From contig JAZQTY010000203.1 in assembly GCA_045631025.1 (NCBI GenBank), positions 1-40,793 of the forward strand: DNA of 40,793 nt, written 5' to 3'. Of this stretch, positions 2,275 to 36,589 are shown in pieces. The DNA comes from Eubacteriales bacterium. GTDB lineage: Bacteria; Bacillota; Clostridia; Oscillospirales; CAG-272. Each line of letters opens with the position of its first letter. Positions within the stretch are counted from its first letter, which is position 1. A program made the translations under genes and the position numbers. Under the pieces are notes generated by a model. It saw nothing but the letters and a program-made list of their open reading frames with translations, was not told the origin of the DNA and did not search any database.

Positions 2275-3615
2275 GTGAATTTACAGTTTTATTTCGAGAA
2301 AAAAACGGGTAAAATCAAGCCTATGCACGCTGTTGGACAGCCGCCAACGGACATTGGATTGAATGAGATAGACTCAAGCATGTTGCGTTATCTGAAGGAA
2401 GCCAATATCCCGTATTCACGTATGCACGACGTTGGCGGTACTTTTGGCAGAAACCTGTTTGTTGACGTTCCGAATTTGTTTAGGGATTTTGATGCTGACG
2501 AGAACGATCCGGAGTCCTATGATTTTATATTTACGGATAAACTGTTCGAGGCGCTTATGGAATACGGAGTAGAGCCGTATTTCCGTTTGGGTGTTACTAT
2601 TGAAAACTGTCACGGTATCAAAGCGTATCGCATTTTTCCTCCCAAGGATTTTGCAAAATGGGCGAGGATATGTGAGCATATCGTAAAACACTATAACGAG
2701 GGTTGGGCGAACGGGTATCATTTCAATATCAAGTATTGGGAGATATGGAACGAGCCTGACGGTGATCGCATTGTTGAGAATAATGATATGTGGCGCGGAA
2801 CGGCGGAGCAGTTCTATGACCTTTACGCGGTAACAGCAAAGCACCTAAAGGAAGTCTTTGGCGATTCTATTAAGATAGGCGGTTACGGAAGCAGGGGACT
2901 TTATCTCGGCTTTATGCAATTTGAGGAAAAATACACAAGACCTCACGAATTAGCGAACTGGGAGAAGAACGAGTATTATCATCTTGAATTTTTCAGGGGA
3001 TTTGTTGAGAAAATCAAGAAAGACAACGTTCCGTTCGATTTCTTCTCGCACCACAGTTATTTAGACGTAGGCAGAACCGAGAGAGTTCAAAGATACTGCG
3101 AGGCATTGCTTGAGGAATATGGATTGCGTGACGTTGAGATACATCTCAACGAGTGGAATACCATTAAAAAACGTGAGACGAGAGGCTCGTCTCAGTCGGC
3201 GGCGGAGTCGGCGGCAATGATGATATCTATGCAACGCACCAAGCTGCAGATGATGTGCTATTACGATGCGCGATTTAACACAAGTATGTATGCGGGCCTG
3301 TTCAATCCTTTGACGGCAAAGCCCTTCTGTACGTTTTATTCCTTTTCCGCCTTTGGAGAGCTTTACAGGCTTGGCGCTGAGGTTCAGGTCGAAGGCTGGG
3401 GGGACGGACTTTATGCACTTGCCGCGACGAACGGCGAAGAAAAAGGTATTTTAATTACCAACATTGGAGAGACGAAGTCGGTAACGACCAATCTCGAGAA
3501 CGGCTATACGGTATATAAGATCGATTTTGACAATCATATGACACCCGTAGAGCTGAATTACAATGATTTTGAAATAGCGAAGTTTGCCACGCTATTTTTA
3601 AAAAATAAAAAATGA
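2275..3615 (+). CDS. Clan GH-A glycoside hydrolase, GH39-like; no signal peptide
   Basis: GTG start preceded by AGGAAAGGAG. YWEIWNEPD (acid/base NEP motif) and IHLNEWN (nucleophile-type motif) resemble GH39 beta-xylosidase-type enzymes. Family call by eye only. Confidence 0.65.
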   Translation: MNLQFYFEKKTGKIKPMHAVGQPPTDIGLNEIDSSMLRYLKEANIPYSRMHDVGGTFGRNLFVDVPNLFRDFDADENDPESYDFIFTDKLFEALMEYGVEPYFRLGVTIENCHGIKAYRIFPPKDFAKWARICEHIVKHYNEGWANGYHFNIKYWEIWNEPDGDRIVENNDMWRGTAEQFYDLYAVTAKHLKEVFGDSIKIGGYGSRGLYLGFMQFEEKYTRPHELANWEKNEYYHLEFFRGFVEKIKKDNVPFDFFSHHSYLDVGRTERVQRYCEALLEEYGLRDVEIHLNEWNTIKKRETRGSSQSAAESAAMMISMQRTKLQMMCYYDARFNTSMYAGLFNPLTAKPFCTFYSFSAFGELYRLGAEVQVEGWGDGLYALAATNGEEKGILITNIGETKSVTTNLENGYTVYKIDFDNHMTPVELNYNDFEIAKFATLFLKNKK

Positions 3616-3630
3616 AAAAAGGAGACACTT

Positions 3631-4689
3631 ATGAAAAAACTTTTATCTTTGGCATTAGTTATTATTATGACTGCATCTCTTATGATCGCGGTCGGCGCAA
3701 GTGGGACGGATGAACCCCAGAACGGAGATCTGCTGGGTACGGTAGATTTTAGCGGTTCGAATTTCACCGACGGAAGAGGCAGCCACTGGAACAAGACGAA
3801 TGCTCAGGTTTCTGACAACGGAGATTCCGTTACGGTTGAGTATACGGATGACAAGCGAAACGATGGTGACGAGAACAGAGGCCGCGCAAGATACGGTTCT
3901 GACCAGATGAGCGCGTACAAAACCGCGGGTAATTCTTATACCGTTGAGTTCACTATCGATTCCAAGGCTTACGTGGGCGTTATGCTTGACGGCAACACGG
4001 GATTCATCATCAATCCTGCTTTGAATTCTACCAGCGTTGGTCAGACGAACGTTATGGACAATATGGATTTTGAGACGTATGACGGTACGGGCGCGTCAAA
4101 GCAGACTTATGCTATAGAGATGACGTGTGCGGCGGAGACGTCTAAAAGCTATGACGGCTCGCTTGATGTTTATGCACCGACGGTATACAGACTTTTCGTT
4201 AAGGACGAGGCTAATGATAGCTGGAGACTCGTAAGAGAGATCACCGATATGGCAGAGCTGTCTCGCTTTGAATTTGAATCAGGCGGATTCGATTATTTCT
4301 ATTTTGCAGTAACCCGTTACGGTGACGATGAGTACAATTTTGACTCAGAGAACGATAATGCTCCCGTAAAGTCCACTGTAAGCAACGTAAATATATACAA
4401 GGGAATTGACTTTATTACCAAAGGCGAGTCTGCTATCGTAGTTCCGCCTGAAGACGAAAACAACGCAGGTGATCCTCCTACAACAAATCCTTCCGGTGGC
4501 AACACAAACAACGACAACGACAAGACTACCGACACAGAGAAGCAGGACACTGAGGCTCAGACCGAGGCACAGACTGAGGCTGAGGCGCAAAAGGGATGCG
4601 GTTCCGTAATCGCAGGAGTAGGTGCTGCTTTGGTAAGCGCTTGCGCGGCAGGATTTGTAATCAGTAACAGAAAAAAGGAAGAGGACTGA
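3631..4689 (+). CDS. Secreted protein: signal peptide, one jelly-roll module (type A), acidic T/E/A/Q linker, C-terminal KGCGS-TM-RKKEED tail
   Basis: RBS AAGGAGA and an N-terminal signal peptide. The module aligns with both repeats of 6444..9350 (RARYxS..., YTVEFTIDSKAxVGxMLDGNTGFxINP, KQTYAIE, NxPVKSTVSxVxIYKG). The tail resembles those of 12737..13717 and 30212..31999. Confidence 0.8.
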   Translation: MKKLLSLALVIIMTASLMIAVGASGTDEPQNGDLLGTVDFSGSNFTDGRGSHWNKTNAQVSDNGDSVTVEYTDDKRNDGDENRGRARYGSDQMSAYKTAGNSYTVEFTIDSKAYVGVMLDGNTGFIINPALNSTSVGQTNVMDNMDFETYDGTGASKQTYAIEMTCAAETSKSYDGSLDVYAPTVYRLFVKDEANDSWRLVREITDMAELSRFEFESGGFDYFYFAVTRYGDDEYNFDSENDNAPVKSTVSNVNIYKGIDFITKGESAIVVPPEDENNAGDPPTTNPSGGNTNNDNDKTTDTEKQDTEAQTEAQTEAEAQKGCGSVIAGVGAALVSACAAGFVISNRKKEED

Positions 4690-4933: not shown

Positions 4934-6409
4934 ATGAAAAGAACAATTACACTTTTAGTGGTAATTTTAATGCTTTTGCCTATAATGGTGTCTTGTTTAG
5001 ATAATACCGAAGAGGTTGGTGAAACTGAATCTTTGGTAGAAGAAGATGACGGATTGCTGTTGAGCGACAAGGTCAGAGACGTTAAGTTCAACGGAGAGGA
5101 CATCAATATATGGCAGGTCACCATAGCAACTAATGCGGCTGAATATTTTTACGATATGAACGGTGACTTTGAGGGAGATATTATTTCCCAAGAAATATTC
5201 AGAAGAAACGTAGCAGTAAAGGATTATTTAAACGTCAATATAAACTTTATTGACGGAGGCGCGGAATCCAGCAACGCGGCAACCGATTGCCGTCCTCTTT
5301 TGCAATCGGACTCTGGAGAGTTTGACGCATACGAGCTTATTCAGTGGAATGGAATGAGTCTTGTTATCGAGGGGTGGTTCAAAAACCTTGACGATTCGAA
5401 GTATCTTGATTTTGAAGGCGAGTGGTGGTCTGAGGATTTTATGGACGCCGCAAAGATAAACGGTCACAACTACGTAATGGCGGGTGACATCGGCATAGAT
5501 ATGGTAAGCTGCGCAGCCTCAATATTCGTTAACAAGAATATGCTTGCTAAATATCACGGTGAGAACGCCTACGAGGAATTGAGAACGATGGTTCTTGACG
5601 GCAAATGGACTATCGAGGAAATAACCAAGCTCTCTAAAGATACGTACGACGATTTGAACAGAAACGAAGTAGTGGATCTTGAGGATCAGTTTGGATTCCT
5701 TTCGAGTCAGAATCACATCGACGGCTGGTATTTCGGAGCAGGCGGTACTACCATAGTGCGCGACAACGAGGGCAAGGCGGTTCTTTCTATGGGAGACGAG
5801 TACACCGTAGACGTTATGGAGCGTCTGTATCGCGTTATGCACGTGGAAAGCCCCAATGATTACGGAAACAATGCAGGCACGGTACAGATATACAATAACA
5901 AGCATCAGTCAACGCTTGTAGAGAAATTCTCTAAGGGGGAGATGATGTTCTGCATAGGTTATCTGTATACGTCAAGAAATCTCACCAATATGGATGACAA
6001 GTTTGCTCCCCTGCCCTATCCTAAATACAATACCGATCAAGAGGAATACTACTCAATTCTTCACAATATAGTAACGCTGTTTGCAATTCCCACGTCTTGC
6101 GCGAAGTACGATCAGACGAGTGCGTCTTTTGAAGTTATGGCAAGCTTTGGAAAGCAGATGATATTACCTTCTTACTATGAAACGATGCTTAAGATAAGAT
6201 ATCTTGACAACGCAGAGGATGCCGCGCTCGTTGATTTGATCTATAATGCGAGAATGTCGGATATAGGCGTTGTATTCAATTCCAAGGCGTTTTCAATTCC
6301 CCGTAAGATGATACAGGAAAAGAGTATGAATATGTCTCGGTATATTACCACGTACAATAATGAAATTCAAGATGACCTGAACAAGATAAACGGTGTGAAT
6401 TTGTCCTGA
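4934..6409 (+). CDS. Extracellular solute-binding-protein-like lipoprotein (no ABC partner genes in the window)
   Basis: Lipobox (LLPIMVSC). About 490 aa, the usual size of family-1 sugar SBPs. Paralog of 28777..30219 (shared PLPYPxY..Q..YY block). SBP assignment is by overall look only. Confidence 0.55.
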   Translation: MKRTITLLVVILMLLPIMVSCLDNTEEVGETESLVEEDDGLLLSDKVRDVKFNGEDINIWQVTIATNAAEYFYDMNGDFEGDIISQEIFRRNVAVKDYLNVNINFIDGGAESSNAATDCRPLLQSDSGEFDAYELIQWNGMSLVIEGWFKNLDDSKYLDFEGEWWSEDFMDAAKINGHNYVMAGDIGIDMVSCAASIFVNKNMLAKYHGENAYEELRTMVLDGKWTIEEITKLSKDTYDDLNRNEVVDLEDQFGFLSSQNHIDGWYFGAGGTTIVRDNEGKAVLSMGDEYTVDVMERLYRVMHVESPNDYGNNAGTVQIYNNKHQSTLVEKFSKGEMMFCIGYLYTSRNLTNMDDKFAPLPYPKYNTDQEEYYSILHNIVTLFAIPTSCAKYDQTSASFEVMASFGKQMILPSYYETMLKIRYLDNAEDAALVDLIYNARMSDIGVVFNSKAFSIPRKMIQEKSMNMSRYITTYNNEIQDDLNKINGVNLS

Positions 6410-6443: not shown

Positions 6444-9350
6444 ATGAAAGTGAAAACAACAAAAAAAGCGCTGTCACTCTTTCTTGCAGTATTGATGATA
6501 GCGTTGGCGATTCCATTTACACTGCTGACAGTATCCGCAGCATCTTATGATTCCGCAAGCGTCGGAGACGTGCTTTACGAGGTAAACTTCAAGGGTGACG
6601 ACACTTATGCGCCTGTTGACGGAAGAGGTGAGTGGTACAAGACCAATGCTACCCCTTCTAATGACGGAAAATCCGTTACAGTTCAATATACGACAGAAAA
6701 AAGATCCGGCGTGACGGTTACTAAAGAGCGTGCAAGATATTGTTCTAACGCTATGACCGCATTCCCTGTAAACGGTAGAGCCTATACAATTGAATTTACC
6801 ATTGATTCTAAAGCTGACGTAGGCTTTATGCTTGACGGTAACACGGGCTTTGTAATCAACCCAAGTCTCAATAGAACGTCGATAGGTCAAAGCGATTGGA
6901 GAAGTGCTTTAGCTAACTACGAATACTACGACGGCACGGGTAATAGCAAGCAAACCTACGCAATAGAGCTTGAGTGTTCGGATACACTCACCGGCGTTAA
7001 ATATTATCCCACTGTTTATAAGCTTTACGTTCAGCAGGACAACGGTACGTGGAAGCTTATAAGAGAGGTTGGCGGAAACGTAACGGTTGGCGGCGATAAC
7101 AACGGTAAAGAGATGGCAAGCATATTTGAATGGGAATATTACGGCAAAAACGAAAACTATGCTTATTTCTATCTTTCCATAAATCGCTACGGCGCGGACG
7201 AAAAAAATTTTGACGCAGAGGATAACCCCGTAAAGTCCACCGTAAGTGACGTAAAGATAAGAAAAGGTATAAACGTTATAGACGTGTATGTAGAAGAACC
7301 GGAAGAACAGGAAAGAGAGCCTCTTTATACTGTAAACTTCAATGGTGACGACACTTATGATCCTGTTGACGGAAGAGGTGACTGGTACAAGACCAATGCT
7401 CAGACTTCCGATGACGGAAAATCCGTTACAGTTCAATATACAACGGAAAAAAGAGACGGTGCGACGGTCACTACAGAGCGTGCAAGATATTGTTCTAACG
7501 TTATGACCGCATTCCCTGTCAATGGCAGAGCCTATACAATTAAATTTACCATTGATTCTAAAGCTGACGTAGGCTTTATGCTTGACGGTAACACGGGCTT
7601 TGTAATCAATCCGAGTCTTAACAGAACCTCGATAGGTCAGACGGACTGGAGAAGCGCATTAGCTGATTACGAGGTGTACGACGGCACGGGTAACAGCAAA
7701 CAGACCTACGCAATAGAGCTTGAGTGTTCGAATACACTCAAAAATGGCAAATACGATCCTGTCGTTTATAAGCTTTACGTTCAGCAGGAAAACGGAACGT
7801 GGAAGCTTATAAGAGAGTTACCTTACAGCAAGGCAGAAAAGTTTGAATGGGAGGATGGCTATGCTTATTTCTATCTTTCCATAAACCGTTACGGTGCAGA
7901 CGAAAACAATTTTGATGCAGATAATAATCCCGTAAAGTCTACCGTAAGCGACGTAAAAATTTACGACAGTATCGGATTCCTTCCTGCTTTCGGTCTTGTA
8001 AGCGGCGCGTCCGTTCGTATTGACGAGCCTACGGGACTTCGCTTTACCGGTATTCTCGGCAAGCATTACGTTGACGGACTCAGAAAAACTTACGGTGAAG
8101 CGGACGTCACGATAGGAATGCTTATCACTCCTACCGATTATCTTGGCGGTATTGAATTTACCAAGGATGCTCTTGATAATAGCGCGGCTCTTGCGGACTA
8201 TGAATACAAATATCTTGAAATTGACGCTACGACTATATTGACCAAGGGTAACAATTACGAGGTGAATTGTACTATCGTAAATATTCTCAAGGGGAACTAC
8301 AACAGAGCCTTCTCCGCAATCCTTTACATAAAGATCACCGACGGTGATACGGTATCGTATTCTTATTCTTCGTACGACGCAGCGTACAATTCAAGAAGCG
8401 TGGCTTACGTTGCTTCTCTTGCAAATTCTGATATGAAGGAAGAACAGAGCGGAGATTACCAATACCCCGTAGAGGATGTTTACGGAAAAACGATGTATAG
8501 TCCCTACAACGATGACCAGAGAACGTTGCTTGAATCTTTCAGCAGTGCTGTTACTTCCTTTACGGTTATGACTTATAACATTAACATAGAGGCTAATAAC
8601 AGCGAAAATATATTGGACACCGTTAAAAATGCAGCTCCCGATATCGTTGGGTTCCAAGAGGACAGCGAAAATTGGAAGAATATTTTACCCGAGCTTAAGA
8701 ACTCCGGATACAATAACGTAGGCGGAGAGAGCAATAACGATGAGTATCTCGATATTTACTACAACAGCAAAAAATTCACAGAGGTTACAGACGGTGCTTT
8801 GTACTACAAGGACCTTAAAAATACGTATTCGGACGTTCCGCTTAATGGAGCAGATTTGAGCTTGGATCAGGATTCTTTTTCCACCTATAAAGGCAGATAT
8901 TTTCGCTACGTAATTTTGAAGGATGCGTCAGGCACACAAATTCTTGTGGTAAATACTCACTTGCATCGTGGCGAAAACAGTGCTGATGACAGACTCCTTC
9001 GTGAATATCAGGCAAGACTTTTGAAGGCTTGGCTTGACGATATGGCTGCTCAATATCCCAATCAGGTCGTTTTGGGAGATATTAACGACGGTCCGAGTGA
9101 GAATTCTATCATTGAGCTTACAGGCGACGGTGCTTTGAGTCAAGCAAGAAGAACCGCATTTCTCAAGGTAGACGTTGGCGGTACTCTTGCAGACAATGAA
9201 GGCCGTAAAACGTATGCGCTTGACCACGTGATCTACAGGGTTGAAAATATGAAAGCACTTGAATATTCAGTAATAGATAACGCATATAGCGATACGTATC
9301 CGTCAGACCATTTGCCCGTAATGGCAAAGTTTGTCTGCTGCACACAATGA
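6444..9350 (+). CDS. Giant secreted protein: 2 x type-A jelly-roll module + conserved middle domain + C-terminal EEP domain
   Basis: Signal peptide MKVKTTKKALSLFLAVLMIALAIPFT. Middle domain GASVRIDEPTGLRFTG...IGMLITPTDYL. EEP motifs MTYNIN, GFQED, NTHLH, LGDIND, DHVIY, YPSDHLPV. Confidence 0.85.
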   Translation: MKVKTTKKALSLFLAVLMIALAIPFTLLTVSAASYDSASVGDVLYEVNFKGDDTYAPVDGRGEWYKTNATPSNDGKSVTVQYTTEKRSGVTVTKERARYCSNAMTAFPVNGRAYTIEFTIDSKADVGFMLDGNTGFVINPSLNRTSIGQSDWRSALANYEYYDGTGNSKQTYAIELECSDTLTGVKYYPTVYKLYVQQDNGTWKLIREVGGNVTVGGDNNGKEMASIFEWEYYGKNENYAYFYLSINRYGADEKNFDAEDNPVKSTVSDVKIRKGINVIDVYVEEPEEQEREPLYTVNFNGDDTYDPVDGRGDWYKTNAQTSDDGKSVTVQYTTEKRDGATVTTERARYCSNVMTAFPVNGRAYTIKFTIDSKADVGFMLDGNTGFVINPSLNRTSIGQTDWRSALADYEVYDGTGNSKQTYAIELECSNTLKNGKYDPVVYKLYVQQENGTWKLIRELPYSKAEKFEWEDGYAYFYLSINRYGADENNFDADNNPVKSTVSDVKIYDSIGFLPAFGLVSGASVRIDEPTGLRFTGILGKHYVDGLRKTYGEADVTIGMLITPTDYLGGIEFTKDALDNSAALADYEYKYLEIDATTILTKGNNYEVNCTIVNILKGNYNRAFSAILYIKITDGDTVSYSYSSYDAAYNSRSVAYVASLANSDMKEEQSGDYQYPVEDVYGKTMYSPYNDDQRTLLESFSSAVTSFTVMTYNINIEANNSENILDTVKNAAPDIVGFQEDSENWKNILPELKNSGYNNVGGESNNDEYLDIYYNSKKFTEVTDGALYYKDLKNTYSDVPLNGADLSLDQDSFSTYKGRYFRYVILKDASGTQILVVNTHLHRGENSADDRLLREYQARLLKAWLDDMAAQYPNQVVLGDINDGPSENSIIELTGDGALSQARRTAFLKVDVGGTLADNEGRKTYALDHVIYRVENMKALEYSVIDNAYSDTYPSDHLPVMAKFVCCTQ
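6561..7967 (+). repeat. Intragenic tandem duplication (period 750 nt) encoding two type-A modules
   Basis: gtaaacttcaa at 6582 recurs at 7332. Identical runs include 6661-6691 = 7411-7441 (31 nt) and 6801-6859 = 7551-7609 (59 nt). Confidence 0.85.
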
Positions 9351-9366: not shown

Positions 9367-9510
9367 ATGCAAATGATTAAGAAGTACGCTACACCGAATG
9401 TCAGTGTTATATTCGTTGCGACGAGTGATGTGATTACAATTTCTCCCGGCGGTGGATATGATGACAAAGAAAACTGGCAGAACGACGTATTTATTGGTAA
9501 AAACCCGTAA
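9367..9510 (+). CDS. Conserved micro-ORF (47 aa) coupled to the giant EEP gene: MQMIKKYATPNVSVIFVATSDVITISPGGGYDDKENWQNDVFIGKNP
   Basis: Below the cutoff of the ORF track. AAGGGAGG RBS; starts 16 nt after the giant gene stop. Shares the K-Y-x-x-P...T-x-D-[IV]...NW-x-x-D-x-F pattern with the micro-ORFs at 13810..13938 and 32045..32173. Confidence 0.55.
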   Translation: MQMIKKYATPNVSVIFVATSDVITISPGGGYDDKENWQNDVFIGKNP

Positions 9511-19443: not shown

Positions 19444-19537
19444 CAAACAAACGTCATAGAAACACAACAAAAGGTCATTTTGAACGCACAAATGTAATGT
19501 TATTTTTTGTAAATATTGACTATTTTTTCGTTTACTA

Positions 19538-19566
19538 TTGACAAACTACACATAAAGTTATATAAT
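19538..19566 (+). promoter_or_regulatory. Consensus sigma-A promoter for AraC 19640..20635
   Basis: CTATTGACAAA, a 17-nt spacer, then TATAAT. Confidence 0.55.
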
Positions 19567-19639
19567 GCACTTAAAAATATACGCGCAAAACCACTCCAAG
19601 TCGTCAAAAACCGGAAACACAAAAATAGGAGGTATAAAA

Positions 19640-26036: not shown

Positions 26037-26149
26037 ATATCTCTCCAAAATTTCATTAAACTCAACGCAGCGTAAGCTACGATACTATTATACACTATGT
26101 TTCGTCCAATATCAAGAGCTTTGGCAAAAAACGTTAACGTATATTTGTT

Positions 26150-28776: not shown

Positions 28777-30219
28777 TCAGTCTAACGCTTCAATAGAATT
28801 AAACAGATTTTCAATCTTGTTTTCGGTAGACGTCTTAACGCCGCCGTACAATCCGGAGATATCTTTAGTGGTGTTAATGCTCTCAAGCAAAATCTTTGTC
28901 TTAAGATTTATCTGGCTTCCGTATACAAGACCGAAATCGAACACGAGGCTATCAACAACGACGTCTACCATTTCAGCGCAAACCTCGTCGTAGCTGCTCT
29001 TAACCTTACAAACGGTGTTGTAGTAGGTAGTGAGCGTAGTGTCCGAGGACTTCCACGACAGAACCTCTACCATGAACGCGGAGAAATCAGCGTCTGCCGC
29101 GCAGATCGGAATTCCGTAGGTTGCACCGTAGGTGTTGTCGTTAGTCGTGTAATAGCGTCCCTGCTCTACGTCGTACATAGGATAAGGCAAGGGAGTATAA
29201 GAGAACTGTGCGTTCTCTCCCAAGCTTTCAATGGACGACAGCGAGGAAGCGTAGAAGAACGCTCTGCCGTCAAGGAAGGTATCGTGCGGGTCGTCGTAAG
29301 TACCGAACTTATTTCCGCAGAAGGAAAGGTCCTCGCTAAAGAGCTTGCGGAGTTCTGCGATGCTGTTCATCGAATGCTCGTTAGCAACCTCAACGCTCCA
29401 ATTATCCTCTGCATCAAAAGCAACGATCTTATTGTTAAGTCCGCTCCAGAAGGAAACGGGGAATTCCTTACCTGCCGCAACGAGTCCCCAGCTATCGTCA
29501 AGATCCATCTTGCCGTCTCCGCCGGGATCGCTCTTGGTATAAATGAGCATCTGCTCTATCGTCCACTGCTTGTCGCGAACCATCTGAACGATATCGGCGT
29601 GCTGGTTTTCAGCTCCGAGATCACGGTTGTAGTACAAGGTGTTGATTCGAGCCTTGTCAACGAGCGAGAAGTCGCTTACCATGTGGAACAGTCTGCCTCC
29701 GACTCTCATGGTGTCAAGAGTTTCGGAGTTGTACCACTCGTTTGTGAAGTCTATATACGACACAGCGTCAAGGTCGTTCATATATCCTGCCAAGATTGCA
29801 GACGACATATAGTTACGCGCCAAGAACGCCAAATCGTAGTCGTAATCTTCAGCGAGTATAACGTTTTTAAGAGCCTCAAGACCGTCGGCATCCTCCGTGT
29901 AGTTATCATCAACCGTAATAGTTACGTTGTAGTACTCCTCTATCCAGTTGTTTCTGTGATAAACCGTATCTGCCATTATATCTCCGCCGAGCTCACCTAC
30001 AAGCTCAAAATTGGGCTCGTGGGCGTTGTTCAAAGCGAGTATATTAAAGTTTCTTCCGCCCCAGTCGTAGTGAGGAACGGGATCGGTAGCTGCCTCTTCG
30101 ACGATTCCCTGGGTTTCAGTTTCCTCCGGTACGTCAACGTCGCAGGCAACGAAGGTCATAAGCAAAAGCAACAATGCAAGAAGCAAGCTGCCTGCTTTTA
30201 AAAATTTTGATTTAGTCAT
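28777..30219 (-). CDS. Extracellular solute-binding-protein-like lipoprotein (paralog of 4934..6409)
   Basis: Lipobox TFVAC. The start ATGACTAA overlaps the stop of 30212..31999 by 8 nt, with RBS AAGGAGA inside the upstream gene. Confidence 0.55.
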   Translation of the reverse strand: MTKSKFLKAGSLLLALLLLLMTFVACDVDVPEETETQGIVEEAATDPVPHYDWGGRNFNILALNNAHEPNFELVGELGGDIMADTVYHRNNWIEEYYNVTITVDDNYTEDADGLEALKNVILAEDYDYDLAFLARNYMSSAILAGYMNDLDAVSYIDFTNEWYNSETLDTMRVGGRLFHMVSDFSLVDKARINTLYYNRDLGAENQHADIVQMVRDKQWTIEQMLIYTKSDPGGDGKMDLDDSWGLVAAGKEFPVSFWSGLNNKIVAFDAEDNWSVEVANEHSMNSIAELRKLFSEDLSFCGNKFGTYDDPHDTFLDGRAFFYASSLSSIESLGENAQFSYTPLPYPMYDVEQGRYYTTNDNTYGATYGIPICAADADFSAFMVEVLSWKSSDTTLTTYYNTVCKVKSSYDEVCAEMVDVVVDSLVFDFGLVYGSQINLKTKILLESINTTKDISGLYGGVKTSTENKIENLFNSIEALD

Positions 30220-31999
30220 CTTTTCTTCTCCTTGAGGTTAAACCAACAACGCCTATTGCAGAAGCCATAACAACAGCCGCACCGCAGAAGCCGATAGAGC
30301 TGCCGCAGCCGCCCTTGGCTGCCTCGGTCTCGGGAGCAGGAGCAGCCTCGGTGTCCTTGTTATCCTCAACCAATACGGGAGGCTTGTTTTCGGGTTTGCT
30401 GGATTCGCCCTTTTCCTCTTCTTCCTCTCCCTCTTCCTCTTCGGGAATGTCCATAGGAGGAGCTGCTTCATTTTCAGCAGCTATGAGAGCAACACCCTTG
30501 TATACGTTAAGGTCACTTACGGTTACTTCGGTCACGAAATACGAGTAGAAGTAAATTCCAAGATAATCTCTCATGAATACGGAGGGATCCTCAACAGGGC
30601 TGTACTGCTCGATAAGAAGCCATCTGCCCTCGGAGTCCTTTACGTACAAAGCGATCGTGGTATTATCGCCGTTGATCTCCATAGCGTACTCCTGAACGGA
30701 AGGATAGTTCTCCGTTCCGCCGTCGTATCCGGCAACGTAGTCGGTGGTAAGTTCAGAGTAATCGATATAAGAGTATCCGCTTACCGCATTACCGTTTCTT
30801 TGAGGTCTGCCCCTGTTAGCGTAGAAGTAACCGCCGTAGGTTCCGTCGATAAGCAAGCCTATCGGAACGTTGCTCGTACGGCTCACGGTAAACTTAACGG
30901 TGTAGGAATATCCTTCGCCGAGAGGAAGTCCTTCGATGTCTGCGCCCCAAGCGGCGTTCTTCTTTTCGGTAACGCCTTCCTCGCCCGTAGGTCTTTCGGT
31001 AACCTTAATAGTTACCTTGCCTGCGTCCTCGGAATCAACGTTTGCGGTGATGTTATCGCAAGGCCACTCCCAACCTGCGTTTGCAGCAGCGGCTGCGTTG
31101 CTGGGCTTGAAGCAGTCGTCAGCTCCGCTGAAGTCAGCAGAGTAAAGGAGACCGCCCTCTTCAACTCCGTCCCACAAAGCCGTGGAAATAACGGGCTCTT
31201 CGCCTTCACCCTCGCCTTCGCCTTCGCCTTCACCCTCGCCACCTGCGGGAGGAGTAACGGCAGCATTTTCATTAGCTACAACCGATATGCCCTTGTATAC
31301 GCATACGTCGCTAACGGTTACTTCAGTTACGTAATACGAATAGAAATATAATCCAAGACGGTCTCTGAAAAATGCGGGCGGATCCTCCTTGGGAGTACCA
31401 TCGTCTATCTTGCTCCATTTGCCGTCCTCGCCCTTTACGTACAAAGCAAACGTCGTATCGTCACCGTTTATCTCAATAACGTACTCCTGCTCCAACTTTT
31501 CGGTATAATTACCCCAGCTATGTCCGGTCAATGCGCTACCGTTTCTTTGAATTCGAGCCTTGTGTGCGTAGAAATAACCACCGTGAGTGCCGTCAAACAG
31601 CAATCCGATAGGGTTTTCGTTATCTGCGCAGGAAACCTTGAACTTAATCGTATAGGAATATCCCTCGCCAAGAGGAAGATTGTCTACATCCGCGCCCCAA
31701 GCAGTATTGTTCTGCGGTGTAACCTTAATAGTCACTTTGCCGGAGTCCTCAGGATCAACCGTTGCGGTTATATTATCGCAAGCCCAGTTGTAACCTGCGT
31801 TTGCAGCAGCAGTTTCGTTGCTGGGCTTGTAGCAGTCATCAGCGCCGCTAAAGTCAGCCTCGTAGAGAAGCGCTCCGTCCGCAGCGGCAGCGTAAATATC
31901 GTTCGTAGCCGCATCTGCGAATGTCGCGATTGCCATGAAGGGTACGGTCATCATCAAGACCAATACCAATGCCAAAATTTTTTTCATCGTGTTTTTCAT
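30212..31999 (-). CDS. Secreted protein: signal peptide, 2 x jelly-roll module (type C) joined by a (GE)n linker, acidic linker, C-terminal KGGCGSS-TM-RRRKDD tail
   Basis: Two repeats (GALLYEADFSGADDCYKPSN... / GGLLYSADFSGADDCFKPSN... through ...VTEVTVSD(V/L)xVYKG). GGEGEGEGEGEGEGEE is encoded at 31196..31243. Confidence 0.8.
   Translation of the reverse strand: MKNTMKKILALVLVLMMTVPFMAIATFADAATNDIYAAAADGALLYEADFSGADDCYKPSNETAAANAGYNWACDNITATVDPEDSGKVTIKVTPQNNTAWGADVDNLPLGEGYSYTIKFKVSCADNENPIGLLFDGTHGGYFYAHKARIQRNGSALTGHSWGNYTEKLEQEYVIEINGDDTTFALYVKGEDGKWSKIDDGTPKEDPPAFFRDRLGLYFYSYYVTEVTVSDVCVYKGISVVANENAAVTPPAGGEGEGEGEGEGEGEEPVISTALWDGVEEGGLLYSADFSGADDCFKPSNAAAAANAGWEWPCDNITANVDSEDAGKVTIKVTERPTGEEGVTEKKNAAWGADIEGLPLGEGYSYTVKFTVSRTSNVPIGLLIDGTYGGYFYANRGRPQRNGNAVSGYSYIDYSELTTDYVAGYDGGTENYPSVQEYAMEINGDNTTIALYVKDSEGRWLLIEQYSPVEDPSVFMRDYLGIYFYSYFVTEVTVSDLNVYKGVALIAAENEAAPPMDIPEEEEGEEEEEKGESSKPENKPPVLVEDNKDTEAAPAPETEAAKGGCGSSIGFCGAAVVMASAIGVVGLTSRRRKDD
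30494..31888 (-). repeat. Two tandem type-C modules with a (GE)n spacer
   Basis: Protein-level repeat of about 200-230 aa seen directly in the translation. Confidence 0.7.
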
Positions 32000-32044: not shown

Positions 32045-32173
32045 TTAGAATGGGTCCTCCGCCCAGTTATCAAGATTGTCGTTTCCGAATATAACGGAAA
32101 ATACCATGATGTCCTTCGTATCGATATCTACTACTCTCATTTCGGGAGAAACGTATTCCTTTTTCATTTTCAT
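32045..32173 (-). CDS. Conserved micro-ORF (42 aa) coupled to the giant EEP gene: MKMKKEYVSPEMRVVDIDTKDIMVFSVIFGNDNLDNWAEDPF
   Basis: AAGGAGGGG RBS; starts 18 nt after the giant gene stop. 32083-32107 is identical to 13848-13872 (25 nt). Confidence 0.65.
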   Translation of the reverse strand: MKMKKEYVSPEMRVVDIDTKDIMVFSVIFGNDNLDNWAEDPF

Positions 32174-32191: not shown

Positions 32192-35100
32192 TTAATATGC
32201 GAACGTTGCGTATACGGGAATGTGGTCAGAGGGATATCTCATAACATCCTTGACTACTTCCTCGCCCGTCTCTTCATCGGTCTCGGTTACAGTACCGGGG
32301 TCGTTCATAACGTTAACTACGGTGTAGGTGAGAGCCTCGGTGTTTCTGAAGAGAATGTGGTCAAATACATATTCATCACGTCCAACGTAATTACTTGAGC
32401 TTGCTAGCGTACCGCCGGTGTCACCGGTAATGCAAGCCTCATCTCTTGCGAAGGAGAGTCCGCTCTCGGAGTAGCCGTTAAGAACCGCCTTACCATTGTT
32501 GGAGTTTATGTGAGCGTTCATATCTCCGGTAAGTATCTGCGTAGGATACTGTGCTTCCTGATCCTTCATCCATGCTGCGAGAAGTCTTGACTGATACTCA
32601 CGAAGAACGTGGTCGTCAGCGCACTTCTCGTCGGAGGAGCTTGTGCCGTCACCGTAGTGGAGGTGAGTATTAACGAAGAGAATTACCTCGCCGGTCGTAT
32701 TGTCTTTGAGAACTGCGTAGCTAAAGGTTCTTCCGATGTCCTCGCTAGAGAACCAGCCCTCTGCGTCACCCTGAGAGTCGATGGACATATCAGTTCCCTC
32801 ATAGCCCTCAATAGTGTAGGTCTTGGCAAGATTCTTGAAGGAATCCCAACCGGAAGTCACAAGAGTGAACTTCTCGGTCTTGTAGTAGATGTCGTTAAAC
32901 GCCCAGCCGTTACCAAACTTGTTGGACCACTTGTACTCTCTGTCTCCTGCAATATTTGCGTATCCTTTGTTCTCAAGAACAGCGAGATAATCGTTCCAGT
33001 CCTCGGTATCCTCCTGGAGTCCGACAACATCAGGGTTAACGTCAAGAATAATCTGAACTGCGTTTGCGGGGTTTCTTCCCTCCCAAGCGTCATCTCTCTT
33101 GTACTCAAGGTTGTAGGTGAGCACGGAAATGGTGGAGTTCTTGTTTGTTCCCTCGCCGTCAGGCTGATTGAAGAAGCTCGTGAGCGTCTTCATCTCGTCT
33201 GCATCGTAGGGGCTGTATACGGTAACGCCTGCAATGGTTATCGCGTTTACGTAATCTCCGCCCATCTCGGTCTTGGTGTCACCATATGCCTTTCTTGCTA
33301 CCTCTGCGACGGATCTGGAGTTATACTCCACGTCAAAATCAGAGTACTTGTAAATTTCGCCGTTAATTTCAATAAACGCTCTTGCAGAGAACTCGCGCGT
33401 GTAGTTAGCAGCCTTTACGTTAACGAGCGCGCAGTTAATAGTGTAGAACAGGCCGTCATCGTCTACGTGTACCGTAGTCGCATCAATCTTTACGTACTTA
33501 ACGCCCGTGATAGCATCGCATGCATCAAGCGCTTCCATAGTAAAGTCGACGCCGTTCTCGGTGAGGTAATCGGTAGGAGTGATTATCATACCGAGCTTTA
33601 CATTCTCCTCGCCGTATTCCTTCTTCAAGGAATCAAGCGTGTACTTTCTGAACTCACTCTCGAAGCGAATACCCGTGGGACTGCTGAGACGAACAGCCGC
33701 GCCCGTTTCGCTCTGAATCTCACCTGCCATAAGTCCCTTGTATATCTTCATGTCAGAAATCTCGGTCCAGGAATTTGCGTCCGAAGTACCGCTGAGCTTT
33801 CTTGTGTAAATTCTGGGGTTAAGGTTATTGCCAAGCTTTGCGCCGTCATAGGTAAGCGTTCTTACTGCGTTGAACGCGCCGTTAGCATCCGCAACGTAAA
33901 GAGTCATAGTGTTATTTTCGGGATCGACCTCAACTGCGAACGTATGCTTCTCGGACTTTTCTACGTCGGTCGAGTAGTTCCACTTATCCTCTCCCGCGTC
34001 AGACTTTCCGACCTTTTCGGTGTTCCACTTATAACAGCGGTTACAGCCAAATCCGTCGATAACGATCGAATGGTCGCCGTCGGCCATGACGCCAAGTCCG
34101 TACTTGTTGTATGCGGTGTTTCCGAATTCGAGGTCAAATATGATGGTGTACTTATACTGCTTGTCGCCGTATACGTAGGTAGTCTCTTCATCAGAACCTT
34201 CCTCCGGCTCTATCACTTCAACAACGTCTCTGAGAGGATAAGAGGTATCGATTCCACCCCAAATAGCGCGGTTATACGACTTACCGTCAATAAGGGTAAG
34301 TCTTGCCATGCTTCCGTCCTCGGAAATAACGGCATCCGCACCGTAGTTGCTATCGCTATAGAAGCCCTGACGCCAATTGAAGCGGTCAGCGAAGTTGACA
34401 GTATAAAGAAGATCGCCGTCCTTTGCGTTATCATACTCGGCAACTCTGTCTTCCTCGGTAGATACAGGCAATCCCTTGTATATCAACAAGTTAGAAAGTT
34501 TAGCCCAAGAATTGGCATTAACTGCGCCTCTTATGACAATCCTGCAGCTCAAATAATCGCCAAAGTCTACATCACCGTACGTAGCTACCTCATTGAACGA
34601 GCCGTCAAGGTCCACAATATAGAGGGACATTGTTTTTGCTTCGGGGTCAACCTCAACAGCAAAGGTCTGTGTACCGGACTTAGGACTCCACAAGCCATCA
34701 TAGTCCCACTGCTCGACGGGATAGTTTGCTCCAACCTCCGTATCCGCGGACATGTCGTTATTCCAGTCCCAGAGTCTGGAGTTTCCGTTTCCGTCGACGG
34801 TAATAGCATAGTTCCCGTCAACCTGAATACCTACCAACGTTCTACCGCCGGTTTCGTTACCGAAATCTACGTCGAACATAACGGTATATTTTCTGTAATT
34901 GCCGTTTGCGTCTGCGGTAAGAGGATATGTGTATTCTCCCCTGTATCCTGCCCACATAGCGCGCTTCGAGCTATAGTTTGCAACGGAAAGCGTTGCGGAG
35001 CTTCCGTCCTTGGAAGCAGTGATATACGCACCTCTGTTGGAGTCAGATGCAAAATTGCCTGCCCAGCCAAGAGAGTTGAAGTTGACGGTGTTAAGAAGAT

Positions 35101-36589
35101 CGCCAACCTTCGCACTATCATACTCAGCAGCTCTGTCTATTGCTTCTGCCTTAATATCGCTGACAGCGCCCTTGTATATCAGAACATCTGCAATTTCATT
35201 CCAGTAATTGCCGTCTACCGTTCCGGACGTATATCTTGTATAGATTCTGCAGTCTAATTTTTTATTGAACTTTACGCCTGTAAACGTTTCTACCTTTACG
35301 TATTCGCCTTCAGTATTCTTTACGTAAAGAGTCATCGTTCCGTTTGCAGTATCAACCTCGACTGCAAACGAATGCAAATCACCATATTTGTCGGCGGCGA
35401 ATCCGCCCGCGGTCAACCAGTTTACTGTTCCCGTGGTGGCTTTAGTGTTCCACTTATACAGATAGGTGTCACCGGATCCGGTAACAAGAATATCCGTGTC
35501 ATTATCTGTACAATCTACCATGATGCCTACTCCGGTTTTTGTATTTCCGAATCTTGCATCATACGTGATTGTGTATTTTTCGCCGCCCTCGGTGGAGAAG
35601 CTATCTGCAGCAGAAAATCCGCCCCAAATTGAGCGCTTATTATTATAGTCGGCAAGTATAGCCTTCGAATGTATCAATTGCTTCAGCGATCTTCCGTTTG
35701 CGGAAGTCATAACATAGGCATGCCAGTTGTTGTGATCTGCAAAATCGTTGCGCCAGGACATGTCGTTAAAGTCGACAACCTTAAGAAGGTCGCCGTTGCC
35801 GGCAGCTGCATATATCTCTGCGGGAGTCTTTTCGACATTGAGCGTATCTACCGTTCCGTTTACGGTAACCTCACCGATATCGATGCATCCGTCCTTACTG
35901 GGAGCTGTTACGGCAACTGCAACGTACTTTGCCGAAACTCCGTTACCCTCACCATCACGAAGATCTATCTTGTGACCAACTCTGAGGTAGCCGTCAACAG
36001 TTTTAGACGCGTATGCGGCATCGCCCTCAACAGGGAACTTCGCTCCGGGATCAGTTCCATCTCCGCACATTCCGCTGAACTCCTTCAAAAAAGTCCAGGT
36101 CTCGCCGTCAGTGCTCACAAGGATTTCATATCCATCGTTAATACCCCAGCTTGATGTGGGATCGCTCCAGGCTACTGCCTTATCTGCAGCGTATCCGTTA
36201 CCCGTAAGCCAAATAGTTACGTCGTCAAGAGTGCTCAAGCCGTTGAGCTCGAATACTGCATATCCGTAATACAGACTCATTGTTGAGCCCACCATAAGAG
36301 GCGTATAGGGGGAAGATATGGACTCGGACTCGTAGTACGGACGTTTACTTCTTCCATCCGCGGACGTATCGTAGGGATCTCCGTCGATCATTCCTGCAAC
36401 GGAGCCATACGAAGTGTGAAGGTCGTATCCGTCACTTCTCTTCGCAAAGATTTTCGCATGCGTAATGGTTGTAGCTATGGTCTCACTTTCCTCTGCCGCT
36501 ATAGGCAACATCGTAAGAGGAAGCGCCAGCGCTATCATCAGCACTGCGAGAAATAATGACAACGCTTTTTTCAGAGTTCTCTTTTTCAT
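32192..36589 (-). CDS. Giant secreted protein: 1 x discoidin-like module + 3 x jelly-roll module (type A-like) + conserved middle domain + C-terminal EEP domain
   Basis: Signal peptide MKKRTLKKALSLFLAVLMIALALPLT. Middle domain GAAVRLSSPTGIRFESEF...LGMIITPTDYL. EEP motifs LTYNLE, GLQED, NTHLH, TGDMNA, DHILF, YPSDHIPV. Confidence 0.85.
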   Translation of the reverse strand: MKKRTLKKALSLFLAVLMIALALPLTMLPIAAEESETIATTITHAKIFAKRSDGYDLHTSYGSVAGMIDGDPYDTSADGRSKRPYYESESISSPYTPLMVGSTMSLYYGYAVFELNGLSTLDDVTIWLTGNGYAADKAVAWSDPTSSWGINDGYEILVSTDGETWTFLKEFSGMCGDGTDPGAKFPVEGDAAYASKTVDGYLRVGHKIDLRDGEGNGVSAKYVAVAVTAPSKDGCIDIGEVTVNGTVDTLNVEKTPAEIYAAAGNGDLLKVVDFNDMSWRNDFADHNNWHAYVMTSANGRSLKQLIHSKAILADYNNKRSIWGGFSAADSFSTEGGEKYTITYDARFGNTKTGVGIMVDCTDNDTDILVTGSGDTYLYKWNTKATTGTVNWLTAGGFAADKYGDLHSFAVEVDTANGTMTLYVKNTEGEYVKVETFTGVKFNKKLDCRIYTRYTSGTVDGNYWNEIADVLIYKGAVSDIKAEAIDRAAEYDSAKVGDLLNTVNFNSLGWAGNFASDSNRGAYITASKDGSSATLSVANYSSKRAMWAGYRGEYTYPLTADANGNYRKYTVMFDVDFGNETGGRTLVGIQVDGNYAITVDGNGNSRLWDWNNDMSADTEVGANYPVEQWDYDGLWSPKSGTQTFAVEVDPEAKTMSLYIVDLDGSFNEVATYGDVDFGDYLSCRIVIRGAVNANSWAKLSNLLIYKGLPVSTEEDRVAEYDNAKDGDLLYTVNFADRFNWRQGFYSDSNYGADAVISEDGSMARLTLIDGKSYNRAIWGGIDTSYPLRDVVEVIEPEEGSDEETTYVYGDKQYKYTIIFDLEFGNTAYNKYGLGVMADGDHSIVIDGFGCNRCYKWNTEKVGKSDAGEDKWNYSTDVEKSEKHTFAVEVDPENNTMTLYVADANGAFNAVRTLTYDGAKLGNNLNPRIYTRKLSGTSDANSWTEISDMKIYKGLMAGEIQSETGAAVRLSSPTGIRFESEFRKYTLDSLKKEYGEENVKLGMIITPTDYLTENGVDFTMEALDACDAITGVKYVKIDATTVHVDDDGLFYTINCALVNVKAANYTREFSARAFIEINGEIYKYSDFDVEYNSRSVAEVARKAYGDTKTEMGGDYVNAITIAGVTVYSPYDADEMKTLTSFFNQPDGEGTNKNSTISVLTYNLEYKRDDAWEGRNPANAVQIILDVNPDVVGLQEDTEDWNDYLAVLENKGYANIAGDREYKWSNKFGNGWAFNDIYYKTEKFTLVTSGWDSFKNLAKTYTIEGYEGTDMSIDSQGDAEGWFSSEDIGRTFSYAVLKDNTTGEVILFVNTHLHYGDGTSSSDEKCADDHVLREYQSRLLAAWMKDQEAQYPTQILTGDMNAHINSNNGKAVLNGYSESGLSFARDEACITGDTGGTLASSSNYVGRDEYVFDHILFRNTEALTYTVVNVMNDPGTVTETDEETGEEVVKDVMRYPSDHIPVYATFAY
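33731..35818 (-). repeat. Three tandem ~220-240-aa modules (GDLLxxV(D/N)F ... FAVEVD...MTLY(V/I) ... (L/K)IYKG)
   Basis: Counted from the translation: approximately aa 258-474, 488-705 and 715-953. Confidence 0.7.

Follow-up and report, generated by a model that had tools for sequence, protein, structure and literature searches.

Three duplicated AraC-flanked cassettes with giant secreted EEP-domain proteins in uncultured gut Clostridia: candidate loci for the use of phosphate-containing glycopolymers

BT3783 and BT2630 are mannose-6-phosphatases encoded in the yeast-mannan polysaccharide utilisation loci (PULs) of Bacteroides thetaiotaomicron (PDB 3MPR, 4C1R; Cuskin et al. 2015, PMC4978465), and BT3783 is a Mg-dependent phosphatase that acts there on phosphorylated mannan. 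Secreted enzymes of the endonuclease/exonuclease/phosphatase (EEP) superfamily from gut Clostridia release phosphocholine or phosphoethanolamine from GlcNAc and are strictly specific for the sugar (Fossa et al. 2023, PMC10704324; GlcNAc-PDase family in the following). We analysed a contig of 40,793 nt from an Eubacteriales bacterium (GenBank assembly GCA_045631025.1, contig JAZQTY010000203.1; the whole stretch is referred to as the window). It harbors three gene cassettes, each divergent from an AraC-type regulator gene and each built around a giant secreted protein with a C-terminal EEP domain, a directly following open reading frame (ORF) for a peptide of 42 or 47 aa (micro-ORF) and a surface protein with a GCGS-containing tail. 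With moderate confidence we read them as catabolic loci that were duplicated, are regulated independently and serve the use of an anionic glycopolymer or glycoconjugate with phosphate esters in uncultured Oscillospiraceae-like Clostridia of the gut and rumen.

The EEP domains of the window share fold and Mg site with BT3783 and BT2630, which are their best match in both sequence and structure. The Bacteroides enzymes are also part of a regulated glycan locus, lie beside glycosidases and act on a phosphorylated glycan. However, they are periplasmic single-domain proteins of about 290 aa from loci of the SusC/D type, while in the window the EEP domain (about 20% identity to BT3783) forms the end of secreted multi-module proteins of 968–1465 aa, has lipoprotein and cytoplasmic paralogs, and is accompanied by AraC-type regulators, the micro-ORF and an anchored partner. 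The enzymes of the GlcNAc-PDase family, with which the window was compared by description only, also stem from gut and rumen Clostridia, one of them from Oscillospiraceae/Ruminococcaceae. They are secreted, and their target is a phosphodiester bond on a sugar, not one in nucleic acid or lipid; by analogy this family shows that the chemistry proposed here exists in the lineage. Unlike the giant proteins, they are single-domain enzymes of 219–357 aa that cluster near sphingomyelinases, and no comparable cassette, micro-ORF or module architecture was described for them.

A PUL of Gram-positive bacteria consists of a regulator, a carbohydrate-active enzyme and a transporter, often with a solute-binding protein (SBP) lipoprotein and with surface enzymes that bear carbohydrate-binding modules. 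The divergent sugar-type regulator, the secreted multi-module enzymes, the SBP lipoprotein, the cytoplasmic glycosidases and the strain-variable, duplicated loci are common to such systems and the window. The window differs in that its outward-facing enzymes are phosphoesterases and not glycoside hydrolases or lyases, that no ABC permease or ATPase accompanies the SBP, and that binding modules are placed on a separate anchored protein. Regulator and carbohydrate-active enzyme (GH39-like) are present, and transport is represented by an orphan SBP and a doubtful MFS protein. By analogy, the locus would work like a Gram-positive PUL with catalytic domains resembling the sugar phosphatases of the BT3783 type. 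It did not classify as an ABC uptake system, a case of LPXTG anchoring, a RiPP (ribosomally synthesised and post-translationally modified peptide) cluster or a toxin-immunity pair. The first-pass annotation, which was made from the DNA letters without database searches, could not map the locus to any characterised utilisation locus, and none of this composition was found in the searchable literature either; a search for EEP proteins in connection with PULs or teichoic acid gave nothing relevant.

Duplication and distribution of the cassettes

ORF maps and Pfam scans reproduced the parts list of the first-pass annotation at its coordinates. Cassette I extends from 2275 to 10931 (plus strand), cassette II from 19354 down to 12737 and cassette III from 36589 down to 25302 (both minus strand). 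Paralogy was measured by all-against-all blastp of the window proteins. The three AraC proteins that face the cassettes are mutually 51–62% identical (AraC1 62% to AraC2 and 54% to AraC3), the two GH39-like proteins 71%, the C-terminal parts of the giant EEP proteins (about 480 aa) 31–42%, the micro-ORF products 36–64%, the two EEP lipoproteins 34% and the two SBP-like proteins 24% over their full length. The single-domain protein EEPsmall is 39–41% identical to the catalytic domains of the EEP lipoproteins.

The three divergent intergenic regions share a conserved core of about 150 nt in a three-way alignment, and this core holds both promoters. A perfect TTGACA-17-TATAAT promoter is present in region I (minus strand, 2079–2051), in region II (plus strand, 19538–19566) and in region III (plus strand, 36858–36886). 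Region I also contains TTGAAT-17-TAAAAT with a TG element (plus strand, 2175–2203), and region III contains TTGAAA-17-TAAAAT with TG (minus strand, 36763–36735). Since the genes are paralogous and the divergent promoter regions can be aligned, whole regulator-promoter-operon units must have been duplicated. We concluded that cassettes I, II and III are true paralogs, each facing its own AraC paralog, as the first-pass annotation had claimed. EEPsmall, whose gene lies just beyond the range 2275–36589 covered by the first-pass annotation of the cassettes, is also part of the system, since it is linked to AraC3 in the window and to the AraC counterpart in two of the related loci (L005 and L011; related loci and proteins carry our handles L and P).

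The giant EEP family is rare, with 30 clusters among 5.8 billion proteins. A locus scan with patterns from the mid-domain only (the region between modules and EEP domain, see below) and one genome per species revealed 18 loci in metagenome-assembled genomes (MAGs) of uncultured Clostridia, Eubacteriales, Oscillospiraceae, Ruminococcus and Christensenella, mostly from ruminant guts. The only exception was a short contig binned as Elusimicrobiaceae. Local hidden Markov models (HMMs) detected a micro-ORF within about 25 nt 3' of 11 out of 11 giant genes with mid-domain and EEP domain for which downstream DNA was readable, and a GCGS-tailed protein is encoded in 8 of these 11 loci. The SBP-like, EEP-lipoprotein, GH39-like, PHP and AraC genes recur, and the composition was repeated in more than 10 loci from different MAGs, so that the components co-occur well beyond this genome. 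In the Oscillospiraceae MAG SIG616 cassette III and its flank are about 90% identical to the window, and a cassette-I-like unit lies on the same 68-kb contig. To reach the context of cassette I in other strains we used P0035, a protein identical to SBP_I. Strains with this protein have cassette I but different neighbours (GH94 and GH31 genes), which indicates that the cassettes behave as accessory, reshuffled units. The sequences thus point to a real, conserved and lineage-restricted system with a plausible chemistry.

Several related loci carry additional genes. Both L012 and L017 encode a YitT membrane protein together with GH4 and GDPD + DUF4996, and in L017 the set is extended by another GDPD and by an MBL hydrolase, a heparinase II/III-like lyase, a GDSL esterase and a CE4 deacetylase. 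A protein resembling GDE_C / (alpha/alpha)6 glycosidases is added in L003 and L004, the latter also with a GDSL esterase. In L009 and L011 the GH39-like gene is followed by genes for a KDPG aldolase, a PfkB kinase, a PHP-like protein and an enolase-superfamily dehydratase; in L011 this sugar-acid block begins 20 nt after the GH39-like gene. Taken together, the genes of the related loci would describe the breakdown of a decorated anionic phosphodiester or phosphate polymer to sugar-acid end products. A recurrent 490-aa protein was considered as ceramidase-like, but a PDB search gave no match in support and we dropped this assignment.

These gene contents also bear on the question whether the cassettes serve foraging at all or, instead, the remodelling or recycling of the cell's own envelope, for example teichoic-acid turnover. 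The anchored partners and the lipoproteins would place the machinery at the cell's own surface, teichoicases of the GlpQ and PhoD type are known in self-recycling, and a distant relative of the micro-ORF adjoins wall-modifying genes of the MBOAT and AlgX-like type. Three paralogous units under AraC-type, apparently substrate-inducible control are, however, a common picture for catabolic genes. The units are linked to cytoplasmic glycosidases and to a pathway of central metabolism, and the content of the cassettes varies among strains of the same species as is the case for accessory nutrient loci. We therefore regard an envelope function as quite unlikely.

The EEP domains, their partners and the candidate substrate

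Exo_endo_phos (PF03372) matched above the gathering cut-off in six window proteins, namely the three giant proteins, the two lipoproteins and EEPsmall (33–69 bits versus 24.5). The motif set YN, QE, H, GDxN, D[HY] and SDHxP is invariant in the alignment of the six domains, and the catalytic and metal-binding columns (N, E, H, D-x-N, D, D-H) are also invariant in an alignment of seven giant proteins. As proposed before, all six domains appear to be catalytically competent, judged from these columns. The best solved relatives by sequence are 3mpr/4c1r (BT3783), 3g6s and 3l1w, followed by CNOT6L, nocturnin and PDE12; EEPlipo_III likewise matched 3mpr and 4c1r, the mannosyl-6-phosphatase. In the AlphaFold2 (AF2) model the C-terminus of EEPbig_I (pLDDT 84) forms a four-layer alpha/beta sandwich. 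The Foldseek top matches of this model were again BT3783 structures (3mpr, 4c1r), with E 8.5e-19 and a target-normalised TM-score of 0.71–0.75 for 3mpr, and the fold ranking followed the sequence ranking, with the BT3783 group before CCR4/nocturnin-type enzymes. Matches to the SpnA nuclease (E 0.012), ExoIII (0.42) and sphingomyelinase (2.5) were marginal in the PDB sequence search; the entries 9sf8 and 9sf9 were discarded as informative relatives, as both are SpnA nuclease with a weak match only. The EEP domains are closest to BT3783 and CCR4/nocturnin-type enzymes, not to DNase or sphingomyelinase.

This ranking is relevant for two alternative substrates. Extracellular nucleic acids could be scavenged if the giant EEP proteins acted as nucleases, the EEP lipoproteins as enzymes of the nucleotidase/phosphatase type, and the SBP imported oligo- or dinucleotides. 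The EEP superfamily is rich in nucleases, CNOT6L, PDE12, TDP2 and ANGEL2 are among the fold neighbours, the SBP fold neighbour 7c14 binds a dinucleotide, and PHP domains often act on nucleic acids. The best matches are nevertheless Bacteroides sugar phosphatases, and the weak NCBIfam matches to nucleases (ExoIII, ExeM/NucH) reached 15–29 bits versus cut-offs of 99–300. Every cassette or its relatives include glycosidase, esterase, lyase or sugar-acid genes, which would be useless for nucleic acids, and neither nucleoside transporters nor nucleotidases were found. We consider nucleic-acid scavenging improbable.

The second alternative is that the EEP proteins act like sphingomyelinase or phospholipase C on the head groups of phospholipids or sphingolipids, such as plant or fungal glycosyl-inositol-phosphoceramides, and that the released glycosyl-phospho head group is catabolised. 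Sphingomyelinases belong to the EEP superfamily, and human nSMase2 was found as a fold match (8j2f, rank 23), although far behind the BT3783/CCR4-type matches also by sequence. A GlcA-inositol-phosphate head group would suit the uronic/sugar-acid genes and the GH39-like enzyme, and GH39 also holds iduronidases. The source of the DNA is a herbivore gut, which would be consistent with such lipids. Genes for inositol catabolism, ceramidase or lipase were not found, however, and nothing points to lipid binding by the modules. On balance, there is little to make us expect a lipid substrate, and we rate it slightly below nucleic acids.

The first-pass annotation had guessed at a phosphodiester-containing polymer and named a teichoic-acid-like phosphoglycan, extracellular DNA and lipid head groups as examples. 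The glycopolymer gained indirect support from BT3783 as nearest relative, from the sugar-directed EEP phosphodiesterases of Clostridia and from the GDPD, GH4, esterase and lyase genes of the related loci, with DNA and lipid head groups ranking lower. The most economical substrate would be a phosphoglycan of the teichoic-acid-like or capsular type, although this is a guess.

The other proteins of the cassettes can be placed with different precision. Both GH39-like proteins lack signal peptides. GH39_I scored 56.6 bits with Glyco_hydro_39 (cut-off 26), and its best PDB matches were the GH39 beta-glucosidase 5z3k (3.9e-24) and then GH39 xylosidases; the Pfam match spans only profile positions 63–293 of 472, and the PDB GH39 matches cover residues 35–209. 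WNEP and NEW motifs were spotted by eye. For the SBP-like family no sequence match was found in Pfam or PDB, and more distant homologs carry SBP_bac_1/8. The AF2 model of SBP_I (pLDDT 85.4) has a two-lobed fold, with Foldseek probability 1.0 to 1eu8, 6dtq and 4mfi (UgpB). Its fold neighbours are MalE, the trehalose/maltose-binding protein, UgpB and the dinucleotide-binding protein 7c14, and the lipobox Cys21 is nearly invariant in the family. The model confirms the earlier label of these proteins as SBP-like, with a fold of the MalE/UgpB type. In the beta-helix protein the PF12708 match covers only the N-terminal 48 residues, and NCBIfam gave weak matches to rhamnogalacturonidase and alpha-galacturonidase; the ortholog in L005 is 95% identical, and that of AraC3 in the same locus 90%. 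The PHP protein showed weak NCBIfam matches to CehA/McbA metallohydrolases and HisJ-like proteins and has homologs in L001, L004 and L005.

From these assignments we propose the following route for the use of the glycopolymer. The AraC paralog would sense a breakdown product and switch on the divergent operon. The giant enzyme would be exported by the Sec pathway, its N-terminal beta-sandwich or discoidin-like modules would bind the polymer, and its Mg-dependent EEP domain would cut phosphodiester or phosphomonoester bonds. The GCGS-tailed protein, with the same type of module and a C-terminal anchor, may retain the polymer at the cell surface, where the membrane-tethered EEP lipoprotein would trim phosphate from released fragments. 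The MalE-type lipoprotein would capture the fragments for uptake via a transporter encoded elsewhere. In the cytoplasm the GH39-like glycosidase, the beta-helix hydrolase, the PHP protein and the small EEP protein would complete degradation, and in the relatives the products may enter a keto-deoxy-sugar-acid (KDG-type) pathway. Signal peptides and lipoboxes were read in the secreted and lipoprotein members. Since the cassettes differ mainly in their binding modules, their substrates are probably related but distinct.

Several observations weigh against this proposal. The steps are predicted from sequences and models, and the fold neighbours of the EEP domains include RNA and DNA enzymes. The modules did not match any curated carbohydrate-binding module family. 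For cassette II, in which internal module repeats of EEPbig_II were evident by blastp, the F5_F8_type_C match of 25.1 bits is below the Pfam cut-off and marks the modules as discoidin-like. Cassettes I and III share one unannotated module type of about 220 aa by alignment, which has no match in Pfam or PDB. The description as carbohydrate-binding-type modules in the first-pass annotation is therefore backed for cassette II by this sub-threshold match and has no such backing for cassettes I and III. GDPD and sugar-acid genes occur in some related loci only and not in the window. No ABC permease or ATPase gene lies by the SBP-like genes in the window or in about 15 related loci that hold them (among them L001, L003, L004, L009, L011, L012, L017 and L027–L029), which leaves the uptake step unsupported. 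The only transporter gene of the window, for an MFS protein, had been counted among the members of cassette III. It is separated from the PHP gene by a terminator-like hairpin (25277–25252) and has no homolog in any related locus, so its membership is doubtful, and it is probably a separate unit. All its NCBIfam matches (PgtP, UhpC, GlpT and the DgoT-type D-galactonate transporter) were below the cut-off.

Micro-ORF, mid-domain and GCGS-tailed protein

Each micro-ORF is preceded by a strong ribosome-binding site (RBS) of the AAGGAGG type 7–8 nt before its ATG (AAAGGGAGG for micro_I, AAGGAGG for micro_II, AAGGAGGGG for micro_III), and the peptide is predicted to be translated together with the giant enzyme. 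Stop-codon read-through from the EEP gene into the micro-ORF was rejected, because in cassettes I and II the two genes are in different frames and every micro-ORF comes with an RBS of its own. The paralogs show 9–13 synonymous codon differences and a conserved C-terminal half. The micro_II peptide is the same as that of L003 save for a GTG start there, while the neighbouring proteins are only 70–83% identical. Residues Y7, P10, D21, S26, G30, D32, N36, W37, D40 and F42 are invariant in the family alignment.

The micro-ORF belongs to a broader family that the first-pass annotation had missed. The HMM E-values were 1e-20 for micro_I and 8e-20 for micro_III. The close family comprises about 45 clusters, and 609 clusters were found at E ≤ 1e-3 among 1.84 billion representatives; nearly all members have 33–57 aa and none is named. 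Distant members follow the pattern MKKxYxxPEIEIIxFExEDVITTS with a subsequent acidic tail. Pfam and NCBIfam gave no match to the micro-ORFs even at an E limit of 10. Two long matches of the profile search (P0134, P0135) were excluded as repetitive sequences, and a 42-aa ORF at the end of L029, tried as an additional micro-ORF, is actually the cut-off start of a membrane protein. In L027 the gene of a mid-domain protein precedes a 45-aa ORF of similar appearance, which was not significant in the HMM search.

A large secreted protein that ends in an EEP domain and has a small acidic ORF immediately 3' may also recall a polymorphic toxin that delivers an EEP nuclease, with the micro-ORF product as inhibiting immunity protein. 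The pattern is reversed, however: such toxins combine a constant N-terminal delivery region with a variable C-terminal toxin and an immunity gene specific to it, whereas here the modules at the N-terminus vary and the C-terminal part is the conserved one. Relatives of the micro-ORF also trail large secreted or mid-domain proteins without EEP domain (L018, L022/L030, L026), the smaller EEP paralogs have no micro-ORF partner, and the gene context is catabolic. A toxin-immunity pair is thus very improbable.

Precursors of lasso peptides and other RiPPs of Firmicutes (paeninodin type) have a leader of the form YxxPxL...T, and the N-terminal half of the micro-ORF product presumably resembles such a leader. 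The similarities are the N-terminal KKYxxPEIxVVxLxxxD[IV][IM]xxS, the length of 35–50 aa, the acidic aromatic tail and the lack of a signal peptide. Unlike a lasso core, the corresponding part of the micro-ORF product (G-x-D-x-x-[DE]-N-W-x-x-D-x-F) gives no consistent position for a ring of 7–9 residues, and its partner is a large secreted enzyme. An RRE (PqqD), protease, cyclase or exporter gene is absent from the window and from all related EEP cassettes. Only the remote member P0114 (L033) adjoins a cluster of PqqD, ABC-exporter and HPr-kinase-like genes, which we take to be typical of Firmicute lasso peptides.

A distant relative of the micro-ORF was also observed in a conserved housekeeping neighbourhood of a widespread Bacillota lineage (L022–L025, L030, L031; about 6001–6156), for which the index gave matches in 160 collection blocks. 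The gene order there is holB, PSP1, MBOAT, DHHW/AlgX-like, a 583-aa secreted protein, the micro-ORF and a 261-aa Ser/Ala-rich, C-terminally anchored protein.

The mid-domain comprises about 185 aa with the pattern GASVRxxxPTGIRF...GMLITPTDYL...NCALVNI...FSAR.YI. It has no database match, and the PDB search gave no match before profile position 182; the Foldseek matches of the EEPbig_I model stemmed mostly from its EEP domain and not from the mid-domain. In L009 (10540–10555) and L011 (8408–8416) a run of seven T at the junction of mid-domain and EEP domain shifts the frame and splits the giant gene into a binding part and an EEP ORF of 278–311 aa. This could reflect phase variation, slippage or an assembly error. 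Two unrelated proteins (P0014, P0022) also end with ..FFQ at this junction; the giant genes of the window lack the tract.

The giant paralogs and many relatives have a near-identical signal peptide, KKALSLFLAVLMIALAIPFT. The pattern MKxxxxKKALSLFLAVLMIALAIPFT is almost identical although the mature N-terminal modules are unrelated, and it was also seen in P0011, P0014, P0022, P0023 and P0028. This conservation points either to recombination among the paralogs or to selective pressure for a dedicated step in export or targeting.

The module of GCGS_I is 40–51% identical to those of EEPbig_I and that of GCGS_II 41–51% to those of EEPbig_II, whereas GCGS_III and the N-terminal modules of EEPbig_III share only 29% over 86 aa. 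The tail of these proteins consists of a low-complexity linker, K-G-G-C-G-S, a hydrophobic stretch of about 20 residues and a basic cluster (KKKKDE). Eight related loci encode it, it also occurs in relatives like P0011, and it is confined to a set of surface proteins. The tripartite order of motif, hydrophobic helix and basic cluster is shared with the MYXO-CTERM, Synerg-CTERM and LPXTG signals. In contrast to these, K-G-G-C-G-S takes the place of LPXTG, the lineage is Clostridia, and no Pfam or NCBIfam model, including the curated sorting models, reached its cut-off on the tails, even at an E limit of 10. The only match related to MYXO-CTERM was that of the GCGS_II tail to the MXAN_5453 family (15.7 bits versus a cut-off of 500), and TIGR01167 and PF00746 remained below cut-off and covered only the transmembrane (TM) and basic part. 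No candidate sorting enzyme is encoded within the window. The (GE)n linker between the modules of GCGS_III is encoded by a 12-nt tandem repeat of 3.4 copies (31200–31240), possibly a length-variable spacer.

It is conceivable, though we hold it only tentatively, that the mid-domain protein, the co-translated leader-like peptide of about 40 aa and the GCGS-anchored protein form an undescribed extracytoplasmic module of Clostridia. The peptide would then control, in processed or exported form, how the enzyme folds, acts, docks at the surface or is induced, and the GCGS tail would mark a new sorting pathway.

Gene layout, neighbouring features and significance

The features of the three cassettes are listed in Table 1. 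For GH39_II the longest ORF begins at 19354; the start at 19336 chosen in the first-pass annotation agrees with the start of the paralog.

Table 1. Coordinates of the cassette genes, regulators and regulatory regions in the window
Feature	Position	Strand	Basis or remark
AraC1 regulator, divergent from cassette I	1032..1973	-	Pfam HTH_18 + HTH_AraC
Divergent regulatory region, cassette I	1974..2274	.	conserved core of about 150 nt; araC promoter and cassette promoter
GH39_I, cytoplasmic GH39-like clan-A glycosidase, no signal peptide	2275..3615	+	Pfam Glyco_hydro_39
GCGS_I: signal peptide, one beta-sandwich-type module, E/T/A-rich linker, KGCGS + TM + RKKEED tail	3631..4689	+	
SBP_I lipoprotein, predicted MalE-type (cluster-B-type) solute-binding fold	4934..6409	+	lipobox MVSC; AF2/Foldseek
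EEPbig_I, 968 aa: signal peptide, two modules, mid-domain, EEP domain	6444..9350	+	Pfam Exo_endo_phos
micro_I, 47-aa peptide gene	9367..9510	+	16 nt after EEPbig_I
EEPlipo_I lipoprotein: N-terminal domain + EEP domain	9654..10931	+	Pfam 57.5 bits; lipobox LMGC
GCGS_II: signal peptide, one discoidin-like module, linker, GGCGGS + TM + KRKKD tail	12737..13717	-	
micro_II, 42-aa peptide gene	13810..13938	-	14 nt after EEPbig_II
EEPbig_II, 1340 aa: signal peptide, five discoidin-like modules, mid-domain, EEP domain	13953..17975	-	Pfam Exo_endo_phos 39 bits
GH39_II, cytoplasmic GH39-like glycosidase	17993..19354	-	Pfam Glyco_hydro_39 55.8 bits; probable start 19336
Divergent regulatory region, cassette II	19355..19564	.	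core common to all three regions
AraC2 regulator	19565..20635	+	Pfam HTH_18, HTH_AraC, AraC_binding
MFS anion transporter (OPA/ACS-like), doubtful cassette III member	23843..25060	-	Pfam MFS_1; PDB SLC37A4
PHP-family phosphoesterase, cassette III	25302..26048	-	Pfam PHP_C + PHP
EEPlipo_III lipoprotein	26150..27466	-	Pfam 68.9 bits; PDB sequence matches 3mpr, 4c1r
Cytoplasmic beta-helix protein, pectate-lyase-3 / GH28-like type	27545..28630	-	Pfam PF12708
SBP_III lipoprotein, SBP_I paralog	28777..30219	-	same family alignments as SBP_I
GCGS_III: signal peptide, two modules, linker, GGCGSS + TM + RRRKDD tail	30212..31999	-	8-nt overlap with SBP_III
micro_III, 42-aa peptide gene	32045..32173	-	18 nt after EEPbig_III
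EEPbig_III, 1465 aa: signal peptide, one discoidin-like + three cassette-I-type modules, mid-domain, EEP domain	32192..36589	-	
Divergent regulatory region, cassette III	36590..36952	.	conserved core
AraC3 regulator	36953..37906	+	Pfam
EEPsmall, cytoplasmic single-domain EEP protein	38021..38830	+	Pfam 50.9 bits; 114 nt downstream of AraC3

Between cassettes I and II (11147–12356) lie a Fic/DOC-domain gene (191 aa) and a YcxB-like gene. The Fic gene is probably truncated, since its counterpart in strains L027/L028 encodes 317 aa; in these strains it is followed by GH94 and GH31 genes in place of cassette II. Between the YcxB-like gene and the 3' end of cassette II there is a full-length match to the orphan Gut-1 RNA motif (RF01706; 12444–12521, plus strand; 75.8 bits versus a gathering cut-off of 50, E 1.3e-13), just before a bidirectional terminator at 12681–12714.

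AraC2 and the MFS gene are separated by a low-GC island (20847–23625, minus strand; 35–36% GC versus 42–50% in the cassettes) with three genes without Pfam families, the last of which has weak PADLOC PDC-S57 and weak HSDR_N_2 matches. It looks like an inserted, possibly defence-related element; the PADLOC scan of the island and of the Fic gene gave weak matches only. A fourth AraC-family gene at the contig edge (29–904, minus strand) is more distant (25–33% identical to the other AraC proteins). Upstream of cassette I in L027 another araC gene is divergent from genes for the 669-aa mid-domain protein, the 45-aa ORF and an SBP_bac_1 protein. This set could be a fourth cassette type, lost here at the contig end.

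The usual glycan-foraging loci are built on glycoside hydrolases or lyases, while in the cassettes described here the module-rich, outward-facing enzymes are phosphoesterases. Three families without annotation were exposed by this analysis, namely the peptide of about 40 aa with its 609 clusters, the mid-domain and a Cys-type C-terminal anchor signal. If the mid-domain protein, the peptide and the anchored protein indeed form a common module, the EEP cassettes would be the first phosphoesterase-led glycopolymer utilisation system built on it. If the catabolic role proposed for the cassettes is correct, gut and rumen Clostridia would own dedicated, diversifying systems for phosphate-linked or phosphate-decorated glycopolymers, with teichoic acids, capsular phosphoglycans, phosphomannans and phosphocholine- or phosphoethanolamine-modified glycans as candidate targets. 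These polymers represent a large pool of carbon and phosphorus with almost no assigned degraders, and the enzymes could become glyco-analytical tools, as the GlcNAc-PDase family already has.

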